DNA from: Eledone cirrhosa
Lineage: Eukaryota
Length of the DNA stretch: 64,000 nt
Reading direction: 5' to 3'
NCBI GenBank assembly: GCA_964016885.1
Contig: OZ024751.1
Coordinates: 44,454,001-44,518,000, forward strand
The position numbers were made by a program, and so were the translations under genes. The notes under the pieces are model-generated. The model saw only the letters and a program-made list of their open reading frames with translations. It ran no database searches and was not told the DNA's origin. Positions 973 to 44,154 of the stretch are shown piece after piece (positions within the stretch are counted from its first letter, which is position 1; every line of letters begins with the position of its first letter).

Positions 973-1043
973 TATTTTATTATGCGCATTTCAAAAACAA
1001 ATATCATCATGCGATGACATTTGCGTTTTCGTCAGATAAAATA
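973..1043 (-). ncRNA. Type I hammerhead ribozyme, intact core
   Basis: Minus strand: tattttat-CTGACGA-[aaacgcaaatgtcatc gcat gatgatatttgttttt]-GAAA-tgcgca-TA|ataaaata. 8-bp helix I, ~15-bp helix II, palindromic helix III, AUA site (cut between 981 and 980). Confidence 0.9.
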
Positions 1044-1243
1044 GGGAGACATGATATGAAGGTTAAAAAACACTTGTGAATAGTGCAGTTTTAAATCAAA
1101 CTGTAGAGTGCTACTTATCCGATATCTGCATTGCTTTATTGTACTACAATAAAACTCACCTCCTACATATATATATATATCATCTTATTAAGTTCACGAG
1201 GAAACTACATATACACTAAAACGTATCTAGATCCCATTATTGC

Positions 1244-1300
1244 ACCAGTAATACACTGAGGTAATTGCTGGCCTTGTGCCAAAAGTAGAAACAATTATTA
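1244..1300 (+). mobile_element. 3' fragment of tRNA-derived SINE (family A)
   Basis: ccagtaatacactg..aattgctggccttgtgccaaaagtagaaacaattatt matches the tails of full copies at 3700-3892 and 18178-18360. Confidence 0.8.
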
Positions 1301-2360
1301 AATCTATGTCAAGATTTAAACGTATCTGAAAGTATCTTACGTAGGTCAAGTCTCTCTCTCTCTCTCTCTCTCTCTCTCTCTCTCTCTCTCTCTCTCTCTC
1401 TCTCTCTCTCTCTCTCTCTCTATCTCTCTCTCTCTCTCCATATATATATAGATACCCATATATGTGTATGTATCGTTATTTTATTTGTGTCAAGTTAGTG
1501 TCTGAGCCAGATTCAATTTATCTTAAAGTGAACCAATGAAGGTCAAGTTTTAATAATAATAATAATATTAATAAAAGTAATGATAATAATGATAATGATG
1601 ATGATGATGATGATGATGATGATAATGTCAAGTTACTATATCTGTGTCAAGTCAGTTTATGTATGTCAAGTTAACATATCTGGACAAGATTTAGTTTATC
1701 TCAAAATTTCCCAATGCATGTCGCGTTTTTATTATCATATATTATATATATATATATATATATATATATATATATATATATATATATATATATATACACA
1801 CACACACACACACACATATATATATATATATACATATATAGATGTGTTTGTGGGTGCATGTGTATGTGTGTATGCATATGTGTGTCTGTGTGAGTGTGTG
1901 AAGTTATTATACATGCGTATCAAGTCAGAGCATGTAGATTAGATCATTAGGTCTAAGTAACTCAAAGAAGGTCAAGTCACTATACAGTATATGAAGGTCA
2001 AGTCATTATACAGTATATCTATGTCAAGTTATTGTGCATGATGGTTGTATGGTTAAGAAGTTCGCTTGGCAACACGTTGTTCCAGTGTGCTCTCTTAAAA
2101 GGACTTTATCTAGAATGAGAGATTTCCAGGATATGGCTATTTAACACATGAAATGTGAATCAAAGAAATTCACTCCACACAACAGATCACCCTAGAATAA
2201 ATAGCAAGCAAATCACCACGAAACATATTTTAAATACAGGGGTTGTGGAAGCTTTTCTAATAAATATTGCCTGTACAGGTAATCAATGTGTGTATATATT
2301 TTTTGGGAACACCCTGTATATCTATACACTTCTATGTTTCTCTATACATATGTAAAGACG

Positions 2361-2853
2361 TCTCTACAAATCGCTATATCTCCCTCGATACCTATATCCC
2401 CCTATAGTTCTATATTTCTCTCTACAAATCTATATATCTCCCTCGATACCTAAATAACCCCCTATAGTTCTATATTTCTCTCTACAAATCTATATATCTC
2501 CCTCGATACCTAAATAACCCCCTATAGTTCTATATTTCTCTCTACAGATCTATATATCTCCCTCGATACCTAAATAACCCCCTATAGTTCTATATTTCTC
2601 TCTACAGATCTATATATCTCCCTCGATACCTAAATAACCCCCTATAGTTCTATATTTCTCTCTACAGATCTATATATCTCCCTCGATACCTATATAACCC
2701 CCTATAGTTCTATATTTCTCTCTACAGATCTATATATCTCCCTCGATACCTATATAACCCCCTATAGTTCTATATTACTCTCTACAAATCTATATATCTC
2801 CCTCGATACCTATATAACCCCCTATAGTTCTATATTTCTCTCTACAAATCTAT
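2361..2853. repeat. 60-bp minisatellite, ~8 near-identical units
   Basis: cctatagttctatatttctctctacaaatctatatatctccctcgatacctaaataaccc repeats in register on consecutive 60-nt lines. Confidence 0.97.
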
Positions 2854-3034
2854 AATTCTTTTTATTTTCTCTCCTCCCTCCTTACCCTCCGAAATGAAAC
2901 ATCATTCATATGATATTGTGTGATAATTAAAAACGGATGTAGCTGGTATTAGTTGTGCCTTTCGAAATATTAAACATAATTATATGCACTGGGGAGGATT
3001 TCCTGGTATTATTGAGAAATTATGCCAAAGTGTG

Positions 3035-3130
3035 GACGCAACGTGACCGAATATTGAAGGTGTTGACTTCGCAATCGTTAGGTCCCAGGTTCGATCCTAC
3101 TGTGATATCTTGGTCAAGTACAATTTACCA
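3035..3130 (+). mobile_element. Decayed head of a second tRNA-derived (CORE-like) SINE
   Basis: B-box-like ggttcgatcc followed by tgtgatatcttggtcaagtaca, resembling the CORE-type motif; related to 30450-30740. Confidence 0.5.
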
Positions 3131-3154
3131 TACCATTAACTGGTACTTTAATTA

Positions 3155-41279: not shown

Positions 41280-41699
41280 ATATATATATATGTGTGTGTT
41301 TTCAATGAATATTTAACTCCGTTCTTGCACCACGTCGTACCACATCTACGACAGATGATTCCAAGCGCTTTAATTTGTTCCAAGCGCTTTAATTTGTTGC
41401 ATCATCGTTTATTCACCTTAAATGGTATAAATATATATAAGTGGGGAGTAAATTTTGCTTCAAACATATTATAGAGAAAACATGATTCTGATCTAGTTTG
41501 CTTACTTTCATTAAGGATGTGTTGTATATCCTTATTTACTACATTATGCATAGTTTGGGGAAGTAACCTTCTTAATTCCGTGTATATATTAATATTTCGA
41601 AGCCGCCACGGCGCCTTCTTGAAAGTCTTCTAACTATGAGTTTCTGGTTTCGAGCTTTAAATGTTGTTATTTTGTTGTCATAAGATTTTTAATGACGGG

Positions 41700-42455
41700 T
41701 TTATCCATGAACGCAGCTGGTCTTGCTTTGGGGATCTAGTCGGATTAATTGGAGATGGTTGGGTTTTTTATAGCAATAGAACCCATTGGAAGGAGTGTAT
41801 GAGGCATCTTCGCCCACACGACTCTCCCAGGAAGAAGAAGAAGAAGAAGAAGAAGAAGAAGAAGAAGAAGAAGAAGAAGAAGAAGAAGAAGAAGAAGAAG
41901 AAGAAGAAAAAGAAAAGAAGAAGAAGAAGAAGAAGAAGAAGAAGAAGAAGAAGAAGAAGAAGAAGAAGAAGAAGAAGAAGAAGGAGAAGAAGAAGAAGAA
42001 GAAGAAGAAGAAGAAGAAGAAAAAGAAGAAAAAGAAAAGAAGAAGAAGAAGAAGAAGAAGAAGAAGGAAAAGAAGAAGAAGAAGAAGAAGAAGAAGAAGG
42101 AGAAGAAGAAGAAGAAGAAGAAGAAGAAGAAGAAGAAAAAGAAAAAGAAAAAAGAAGAAGAAGAAGAAGAAGAAGAAAAAGAAAAAAAAGAAGAAGAAGA
42201 AGAAGAAGAAGGAAAAGAAGAAGAAGAAGAAGAAGAAGAAGAAGAAGAAAAGAAAAAGAAGAAGAAGAAGAAGAAAAAGAAAAAGAAGAAGAAAAAGAAG
42301 AAGAAGAAAAAGAGAAAGAAGAAGAAGAAGAAGAAGAAGAAGAAGAAAAAGAAGAAGAAGAAGAAGAAGAAGAAGAAAAAGAAAAAGAAGAAGAAGAAGA
42401 AAAAGAAGAAGAAGAAGAAAAAGAAGAAGAAGAAGAAGAAGAAGAAGAAGAAGAA
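41700..42455 (+). mobile_element. Decayed RTE-like LINE 3' end followed by a long (GAA)n tract
   Basis: Frameshifted SWSC.GI..D.LEMV..NRTHWKECMRHL, homologous to 59105-59224; (GAA)n at 41831-42455. Confidence 0.6.
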
Positions 42456-42954
42456 GTGATCATACATTCTGTAAGTAGATTACATTTGCTTCTTGTTGTA
42501 TACGTTGTCTACGCTTTGTGAATTCGTTTCAGCTGCTATTGTGTCAATGTAACTAAATTTGCTCTTATATTGTTCTATACAATATTATTGACGACACTAT
42601 CAAATATATAAATAGATACCTAGCATTCAGTCACCATGTCTTAGGTATTGTCGATGTGTTGTCAGCTATATAAAAATACCAAAATGTATGTGTTTATAAT
42701 ATGTAATATATAATTTATATATATATATATATATATATATATATATATATATATATATATATATATATATATATATATATATATATGTATATCTAATTGC
42801 TTCACAACTCATGGATACGTTGACTTTCAGCTAAACGTTTATGACTGTTTGTACTTCATTCACTACCTTCTGAATTTGACATTCTGCCCTCACATTCTAC
42901 TTTCCATTCATATATCTCGGTCTATATAATTTCGTTATTATTATCATTATTTGT

Positions 42955-43275
42955 CATGAGCGGGACTGACCCGACTATCATCTGAGTCCATTGTGAAGTT
43001 CACCACGCCGTCTTCCTTTAAAGGAGAAGAACAGGCAGTTTTTATCTGCCCTGGTGGCCATGGTAAAAGAGGTCATGTATTGGACGCCTTTAAAAGGGTT
43101 GAAGACATGTATTTTCCTCTTCGGTGAAGCCCTGATTAATTTCTTCAGGTTTCACTTGAAGGGAAAAATCATGGTGAAGAGGGAAGTGCTACTTTCCAAC
43201 CAGTTTGTTGAAAGGTAGATGAGAGTGGCGAGTATGGTCCAAGTAAAGGAGCCTACTCTGAGTATGTGCCTGTAA
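42955..43275 (+). pseudogene. Diverged Tx1-clade ORF2 C-terminal fragment
   Basis: RLSSESIVK..EQAVFIC/VAMVKEVMYWTPLKGLK..FFRFHLKGKI..REVL..FVER* aligns with the ORF2 C-terminus at ~22520-22830. Confidence 0.85.
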
Positions 43276-43464
43276 ATTGGAGGACAACTGAGTGGGACTT
43301 TCTATTAAGGTCAGGATAGTATTTATGTAGGGAAATAACTAGAGATATCTAAGATTATATATATAATCGGGAACGGGCGATCGCTTCAAAAACATCGAAT
43401 TCGTCCGTTCTCTTGTCACTTCGAACATGGATTGCCTAATAAAAGTAACCTTATTATGTACGAA

Positions 43465-43542
43465 GCTGTCTGATGAGATCATGACATTGGATTTAACACG
43501 GAATTATGTCGCCTCTGCTGTCATCGAAATATATATAACGGC
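43465..43542 (+). ncRNA. Type I hammerhead ribozyme, intact core
   Basis: gctgt-CTGATGA-[gatcatgaca..tgtcatc]-GAAA-tatata-TA|acggc, then AATAAA and a tail ending tttcatt(AT)n. Confidence 0.88.
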
Positions 43543-44118
43543 CTTTTCAATAAAGGATTTTTTTTTAACATCTAAACTACTTTGTATTTCATTATATATA
43601 TATATATATATATATATATATATATATATATATATATATATATATATATATATCGTTTCTGAATTTGTTTAGCAAGATTCTTTATCTGAAAACGTGTGTT
43701 GAAACAGATATTGTTATACTTTGGAAGGGTCATGTTGCCAATAAGAAACACACGCACCAGTTGCTTTCACTTCAATTTATTATAACAAATTTATAAATTT
43801 AGGAATTTATAAATTTCCGGTTGGTTGGTTGGTTCCACAACCAGAAGGTTGTTTATATATTGTCAAAGTTCTTTCGTCACACATTCTGTGACCTCTTAAG
43901 TGACTGGGGATTCTTTTCTTTGTTTTTTTTGTTCTTCTCCTTTGTTCTGCCCTACGCCATCTTGTTTTTGTGTGTGTGTTGTCACATATATATATATACA
44001 TATATATACATATATATATGTATGTATGTATGTAAAAGGTAAACAGAAATAACAACACAATCGGTACAGTATATGGAAGGGATATATTAGGTTAACGCTT
44101 GATATAGCAGGAAGAGGG

Positions 44119-44154
44119 TCTTAACGTTTCGGACGCTAGTCCTTCATCAGAAGA
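44119..44154 (-). ncRNA. Minimal type I hammerhead ribozyme
   Basis: Minus: tctt-CTGATGAA-[ggac tagc gtcc]-GAAAC-GTT|aaga; helix III has no loop. Confidence 0.85.

Follow-up and report, generated by a model that had tools for sequence, protein, structure and literature searches.

Type I hammerhead motifs in (TA)n tracts of the Eledone cirrhosa genome as probable 3' ends of many Penelope-like element families

The stretch analysed here (the window: 64,000 nucleotides (nt) of Eledone cirrhosa contig OZ024751.1, positions 44,454,001 to 44,518,000 of assembly GCA_964016885.1) carries a series of hammerhead ribozyme motifs set among microsatellites. An earlier note, made from the letters alone, had proposed thirteen unrelated motifs in short islands and had taken them for solo pseudo-long terminal repeats (pLTRs), or else for non-autonomous units, from many Penelope-like element (PLE) families. 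The cores it described, CTGANGA..GAAA..UH with helices I to III, are present where it had placed them, and the combined matches of two descriptors find the core intact at nine of the thirteen sites, each a type I hammerhead. The motif at 973-1043 (minus strand) has a palindromic stem III and sits in an insertion (approximately 944-1165) between (TA)n tracts that consists of a near-end arm and an inverted tail. That at 26391-26507 (plus) has a long helix II and a stem III with the palindrome CACGTG, and that at 26971-27028 (minus), which has a U-U at 10.1/11.1, lies at the end of a young 2.8-kb non-coding tandem unit whose window copy spans about 26778-27162. The motif at 27781-27892 (plus) also has a long helix II and lies within an insertion (about 27749-28088) bearing an inverted short arm, the motif at 38432-38469 (minus; site 38428) lies within an insertion at 38403-38571, and the minimal hammerhead at 39922-39960 (minus), of the CTGAAGAT..TGAA layout, lies in an insertion (about 39807-40160) with 126-nt inverted arms. 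The motif at 40582-40646 (plus) belongs to a young family and is homologous to the 973 motif, its window copy reaching upstream to about 40260; that at 43465-43542 (plus) represents a middle-aged family (78-91% identity), and the minimal motif at 44119-44154 (minus) has an ACGT palindrome as stem III and a bulged A at helix II.

The other four sites depart from this pattern. The motif at 25555-25612 (plus) is a hammerhead-like relic with a weak helix II and a fixed A12, whereas the type I hammerhead at 35065-35119 (plus) carries G12A at the level of the copy: given that position 12 is G in 8 of 9 family copies, the substitution is read as decay of a single copy at a CpG. Both are predicted to be catalytically inactive. 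Both had been listed as G12A variants, and 35065 is indeed matched by descriptor solely as such, while 25555 has the A at position 12 but fits no descriptor. No descriptor matched site 34763 or 32095 either, the two that had been called decayed copies. The first (34762-34827, minus) is a decayed member of an old family in which helix I is broken here and kept in other members (73 genome-search candidates, 74-85% identity); the second (32095-32132, plus) is core-like and resembles the 44119 type, with helix I lost and no family resolved (3 candidates, 2 weak relatives), and it is unconfirmed as a ribozyme. Two further insertions had been missed: a two-armed insertion at 41027-41280 (unstranded) of a variant-core family (YUGAGAA) with a stable stem III, both arms being truncated before the 5' core, and, at 43655-43915 (minus), a member of the canonical family met most often in the genome sample described below (10 of 74 motifs), its core here mutated to CTTAAGA. 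Two other TA-flanked islands were observed. That at 35400-35820 is inverted, belongs to a family that is common (17 alignments in 900 kb) and has CTGATGA near both ends, with no complete hammerhead resolved; that at 40768-41000 is multi-copy (4 alignments in 900 kb), and no hammerhead was detected in it.

Three type I descriptors were written (core CUGANGA / GAAA / UH and the three helices in type I order), of which the second allows helix II to carry a bulge or mismatch at its base; this one and the third were tuned after inspection of the window, and the third also after the first genome sample. Against shuffled sequence, a control that the earlier note had proposed, the first descriptor found 5 window sites compared with 0.02-0.05 per shuffle (60 shuffles), the second 7 intact sites and one G12A site compared with no intact motif in 100 dinucleotide shuffles (200-nt blocks), and the third, more tolerant one 8 sites compared with a mean of 0.01; by either of the later descriptors, seven or eight window motifs thus stand against practically none. 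The genome sample comprised 113 stretches of 10 kb (1.13 Mb) at hand-picked round coordinates on 27 large contigs, small contigs being left out, and contained 100 intact-core motifs by the descriptor union compared with 0-1 in five shuffles, 66 of the 113 stretches being without a motif. In 20 held-out stretches (200 kb, contigs C1-C3 only), searched with the descriptors already fixed, 26 motifs were found compared with none after shuffling. It could be argued that motifs with short helices and, at most sites, weak folding energies, none of which matches Rfam in the window, are chance matches in AT-rich, repeat-rich DNA, and 32095, perhaps also 25555, could be such. For the nine intact sites this is refuted by the shuffled and held-out counts, by the multi-copy families and covariation described below and by a family member recognised by Rfam: a relative of the 38428 motif in locus L007 passes Hammerhead_1 (RF00163), against which a 38428-family copy scores 35.1 with the gathering threshold at 34. 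As an account of the motifs as a whole, chance has a negligible probability.

With 9 intact motifs in 64 kb the window reaches 141 per Mb, approximately 1.6 times the average, since the density in the sample is 88.5 per Mb or about one per 11 kb. For a genome of 3.0 Gb this gives an estimate of approximately 262,000 intact-core motifs (183,000-361,000, bootstrap over sampled stretches), a count that excludes variant-core and decayed copies and to which tandem arrays contribute (7 matches in one array of locus L276). The large and mostly unannotated population that had been anticipated is therefore predicted to exist, at one motif per 11 kb genome-wide and not at the one per 5 kb projected from the window. 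The first 74 sample motifs (0.93 Mb) fall in 24 families, and 18 of 74 scored genome candidates passed Rfam Hammerhead_1. The largest counts in the parts of Cervera and de la Pena 2014 (PMC4209133) consulted are about 4,000 in coelacanth and 9,000 in Xenopus tropicalis, compared with some 260,000 estimated here, the ratio being rough as the descriptors differ. The metazoan PLE hammerheads described there are otherwise alike: they are type I motifs whose short stem III is palindromic, a genome holds numerous families of them, most are single motifs of truncated PLEs, and a U3-A8 variant occurs. No census of hammerheads in any cephalopod was found in the literature, although subscription papers may hold larger counts. 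For Octopus vulgaris 336 recent PLE insertions are reported in a paper whose main text is silent on hammerhead, ribozyme and Hydra (PMC13282606).

The clearest link between these motifs and a mobile element is provided by family A, a young family of Hydra type. Its window copy (about 23621-26657) is 5'-truncated and flanked by (TA)n tracts, and contains an open reading frame (ORF; 23626-25440, plus) for residues 168-773 with reverse transcriptase (RT) and endonuclease motifs. The full protein is a single ORF of 773 residues. The window copy shares 99.6-99.8% identity with six full-length copies, and in the C-terminal (endonuclease) part of the ORF 150 of 150 scored genome matches are identical. 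Full-length copies form partial tandems with frequent inverted arms and a hammerhead-to-hammerhead unit of approximately 3.6 kb, with a 26391-type hammerhead at both ends. Both the 25555 relic and the intact 26391 hammerhead lie inside the 3' end of this element, the former in its 3' untranslated region (UTR), so the motifs are not all unrelated, as is also seen from the homology of 973 and 40582; nor are they confined to short islands, as 26391 terminates an ORF-bearing copy of 3 kb. Since A occupies position 12 in 30 of 30 family A loci read, 25555 is a fixed relic and not the working ribozyme of the family. The idea that a young family is mobile with a G12A ribozyme alone was dropped, as the intact family A hammerhead is 26391.

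The family A protein appears to be a telomerase-like RT followed by C-terminal endonuclease motifs, with the motif set diagnostic of the Hydra clade of PLEs. An AlphaFold model (predicted local distance difference test score, pLDDT, 87) has telomerase reverse transcriptases as its top Foldseek matches (E 1.5e-8), YRDD lies at residue 352, and RWK (37), DKT (121), CxCX5C (631), CxxC (729) and CxH (757) are present while CCHH is absent, which is the diagnostic combination of RWK, DKT, CxCX5C, CxxC, CxH and no CCHH given by Craig et al. 2021 (PMC8557442, section 11). In the C-terminal region the motifs IIY..YVG are found with a single Cys between them. Relatives in public collections have 31-43% identity and are nearly all unnamed. 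The Naiad clade was considered and dropped, since Naiads carry an N-terminal endonuclease and are without canonical hammerheads.

Most other motifs also belong to multi-copy families, an outcome opposite to the lack of flank families that would have spoken against the earlier proposal. Genome searches, whose candidate totals are not copy numbers, returned 1,585 candidates for the 38428 family, 2,826 for 26971, 1,264 for 43465, 2,400 for 27781, 1,965 for 44119, 1,145 for 973, 2,786 for 40582 and 33 for 39922, and 35065 gave 6 alignments in a 900-kb sample. Many families are young (98-100% identity), the copies of 40582 being 99-100% identical. Three of these families also adjoin Hydra-like RT-endonuclease ORFs: the 27781 family lies approximately 500 nt downstream of such an ORF in three loci (L186, L189, L191), with the ORF downstream in a fourth (L187); the 38428 family flanks one on both sides in a 4.55-kb unit (L242); and the 973 family adjoins one in L095 and L246. 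With family A included, four families, and hence five of the 13 sites, have a direct link to such ORFs, adjacencies judged to be separate neighbouring insertions having been left out. Pieces of Hydra-like ORFs amount to 15.9 kb of the 1.13 Mb and occur in 11 of 113 sampled loci. The 26971 unit of 2.8 kb has no ORF longer than 163 residues and no similarity to PLE protein, and is likely a non-autonomous PLE. The proposal of solo pLTRs or non-autonomous units of many PLE families is thus supported, by the four ORF-tied families and by this non-coding unit.

Variation in the core extends this set. With 31 arms in 930 kb, the 41027 family ranks among the commonest of those inserted in TA. Its cores are CUGAGAA or UUGARAA, complete in L093, L214, L218, L234 and L239, and most copies break off before reaching the 5' core; in PMC8490949 a CUGANAA candidate is described as inactive. 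The U3-A8 variant gave 10 matches in 930 kb compared with 0.2 after shuffling, with families in L070, L097, L165 and L242, and the G3-C8 and A3-U8 variants gave none.

Downstream of the ribozyme, a microsatellite begins 32-202 nt past the predicted cut at 12 of 13 sites (344 nt at 32095), as had been noted for most copies, and motif counts across the sample follow (TA)n density (Spearman 0.52). The AATAAA reported within about 15 nt holds for 8 of 13 sites, at 3 of them in overlap with the 3' strand of helix I, and in the genome sample it lies wholly 3' of helix I in only 5 of 74 motifs; a general poly(A) signal, unsupported by both sets, was dropped. As for the TTTCATT tails, TTTCAT(T) is the nearer of two fixed ends in several families. 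In eight families, 257 of 271 arms terminate at one of two positions (P1 or P2), mostly followed by TA; both are downstream of the ribozyme and they lie 43-144 nt apart. Where inverted arms abut, P1 is paired with P2 in 44 of 49 classifiable cases (7 more unclassified); two of the queries contained the junction, which biases this set. When only loci free of that bias are counted, the 41027 family being added, P1 is paired with P2 in 26 of 27 classifiable pairs (2 unclassified; binomial p = 2e-7 against 0.5). Some inverted pairs copy one RNA stretch twice, with an overlap of up to 350 nt, which requires two templates or a tandem or circular template. Fold-back self-priming of the P1-primed cDNA, an idea taken from PMC3846280, would not provide the tail on the other arm. 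A search for a peak of 5' ends at the predicted cleavage site was negative, the 5' alignment ends lying within 3 nt of it in only 2 of 178 arms. As stumps continue across this site with no excess of 5' ends at that point, the RNA that served as template had likely not been cut or had been rejoined.

These ends bear on the possibility that the islands are mostly small independent non-autonomous units, similar to retrozymes or short interspersed nuclear elements (SINEs), which cut themselves, circularise and are re-inserted in trans. Such units would agree with the non-coding 2.8-kb tandems of the 26971 family, with the six sites that have no ORF link, with the 39922 family, in which there is little unique sequence upstream, and with tandem hammerhead arrays elsewhere in the sample that may resemble retrozymes or multimeric pLTRs (L093:8630-9700, unit approximately 311 nt; L094:6638-7700, approximately 528 nt; L276:3562-6600, approximately 503 nt). 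This scenario is improbable for several reasons: 5' ends vary between copies and lie off the cut site, P1 and P2, where the 3' ends fall, are both downstream of the cut, the window copies are dispersed singles and not tandems of 170-400 nt, and four families join ORFs. Animal non-LTR (long terminal repeat) retrozymes, as presented in the parts consulted of bioRxiv 10.64898/2026.07.22.740005 and PMC11722881, are non-coding type I units from PLE ends, which the 26971 family and some arrays resemble, and number at most 14,255 (in axolotl), with units of 51-972 bp (bioRxiv). They differ in that the window copies are dispersed and variably truncated and that the 26971 unit, at 2.8 kb, is longer; tandem non-coding units below about 1 kb are absent from the window and occur elsewhere in the genome. 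Discrete units, as originally envisaged, are therefore not what is seen: most copies are ends with a random 5' truncation, frequently accompanied by a second, inverted arm.

It is suggested instead that most copies are stumps of reverse transcription that stopped early. The element protein would nick both strands of a (TA)n tract, after the model of Frangieh et al. 2024 (PMC11167929), and cDNA would be primed from two internal RNA sites, one site per strand; the cDNA would run across the uncut ribozyme and usually halt after 100-400 nt, so that nearly every stump would bear a hammerhead. Solo genomic copies would be mostly inert as monomers, because a short palindromic stem III needs a second copy or the element protein. 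In the experiments of that paper used here, on Poseidon of Anolis carolinensis, reverse transcription has two internal start sites, one on either side of the tail, synthesis extends both strands of the target, and mutation of the ribozyme leaves insertion in vitro normal. The two start sites, the AT-rich targets and the extension of both strands are shared with the elements described here, whereas Poseidon belongs to another clade, has a hammerhead overlapping the start codon in place of one in the 3' UTR, and in that account has no difference in start site between strands, compared here with a near start on one arm and a far start on the other in inverted insertions (26/27). A further possibility is that the genome holds by far the largest hammerhead population in the papers searched and that stem III stays palindromic chiefly because it serves as a pairing signal between RNAs, joining two templates so that a protein dimer primes both (TA)n strands, one from the near and one from the far site. 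Such a signal would explain the strict pairing of P1 with P2, the doubly copied arms (overlap up to 350 nt) and the success of the damaged-core CUGAGAA family; the proposal as a whole is nevertheless regarded as speculative and rather unlikely.

Conservation of the fold is consistent with a function in the parent elements. The core is intact in 244 of 294 homologous copies from 14 families, which is not a genome-wide rate, as intact-core references had been selected and targeted searches supplied many of the loci. In the core, 2 of 154 positions carry variants common to several copies, compared with 85 of 961 positions in the flanks (Fisher p = 3e-4); lineage-level variants were seen in 4/14 for the free N7 and 3/14 for H17. 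In helix II, compensatory changes, on both sides of the pair, occur at 8 of 9 pairs among 14 hand-picked homologues of the 973/40582 type, a structure read from the same sequences and with cell counts inflated by relatedness. Stem III is self-complementary in 62 of 74 genome-sample motifs. Because the core is conserved as a lack of shared, lineage-level variants, selection on the fold would act on master elements. Domestication, in which the host would retain dispersed ribozymes for the cleavage or regulation of its own transcripts, could draw on the same 244 of 294 intact cores and on the very large number of motifs. It is highly improbable, given that the pattern of conservation indicates selection on master elements, that single copies decay (35065, 34763, 43655) and that many families are too young for decay (98-100% identity).

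The nearest described system is the Hydra clade, for which Craig et al. list Hydra-1_Obim of Octopus bimaculoides in File S1. Shared with the description there are a single ORF in which RT motifs are followed by those of an endonuclease, RWK, DKT, CxCX5C, CxxC and CxH without CCHH, insertion into (TA)n, a canonical 3' hammerhead, partial tandems, an inverted arm and a tail, as well as the CTGAAGAT..TGAA layout of some motifs in File S2, as in 39922. The Eledone elements differ in the number of families (few are listed in that paper, compared with at least 24 hammerhead families in 0.93 Mb), in the near-identical young family with intact ORFs, in units of 3.6-4.6 kb with long 3' UTRs, in tails of 43-144 nt compared with 30-40, and in a helix II of up to approximately 110 nt in some families. 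The kind of element is thus already known and the families are new.

Taken together, it is proposed with a probability of about 0.87 that the motifs are type I hammerheads at the 3' ends of many PLE families inserted in (TA)n, the majority of them likely Hydra-clade members, and that most copies are likely stumps of early-stopped reverse transcription. Several observations weigh against this. The Rfam Hammerhead_1 check suggested in the earlier note gave no window site at the gathering score (0 of 13), and by E-value only microsatellite-driven microRNA matches and no hammerhead were among the best 150 of 213. Folding z-scores reach -2 or below at just 4 of 13 sites and minimum-energy folds seldom yield a three-way junction, although weak folding energy is expected of minimal motifs with a short palindromic stem III. 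The linking of flanks to PLE ORFs, successful for four families, found no ORF for 34763, 35065, 39922, 40582, 43465 and 44119 in the 3-kb loci examined. The 44119 family, abundant and with variable 5' ends, had no inverted arms and may belong to another PLE clade. Divergence between subfamilies blurs the ends of local alignments, on which the test of 5' ends depends. For the family A ORF, Pfam and PDB sequence searches gave no match and a GIY-YIG nuclease was absent among the matches listed in the fold search, so the endonuclease assignment depends on the motifs. Placement in the Hydra clade is likewise suggested by motifs, and the units of approximately 3.6 kb (family A) and 4.55 kb (38428-linked) exceed the length of less than 3 kb given for Hydra, which that source presents as a tendency, not a rule (PMC8557442).

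The window contains other repeats. A 157-nt inverted pair (23465-23621 / 27258-27414, 98% complementary) encloses the family A copy and the 26971 stump, and is probably an older insertion whose (TA)n tract received later insertions. Two near-identical L1/Tx1-like long interspersed nuclear elements lie at 19741-22830 and 47142-52009 (both plus; RVT_1, zf-RVT, Exo_endo_phos), the latter with an extra upstream ORF and one frameshift, and a SINE-like element at 38963-39710 has its 5' end expanded to a 45-nt tandem array of 13.7 copies. The window is rich in microsatellites and has long satellites at 4738-15372, 30838-31759 and 52917-55282, whose units measure 28 nt (repeated over 10 kb), 30 nt and, in a CAA-rich one, 87-93 nt.

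The interest of these elements lies in their scale, in the young intact element and in the strict pairing of ends. Approximately 260,000 intact-core motifs from dozens of families would be a far larger sample of natural hammerhead variation than the printed counts, and Rfam misses nearly all of this population. The pairing of one near with one far end places a quantitative constraint on the mechanism of insertion. Finally, if solo intronic copies were to cut or to form long hairpins, which is hypothetical, host RNA could be affected.

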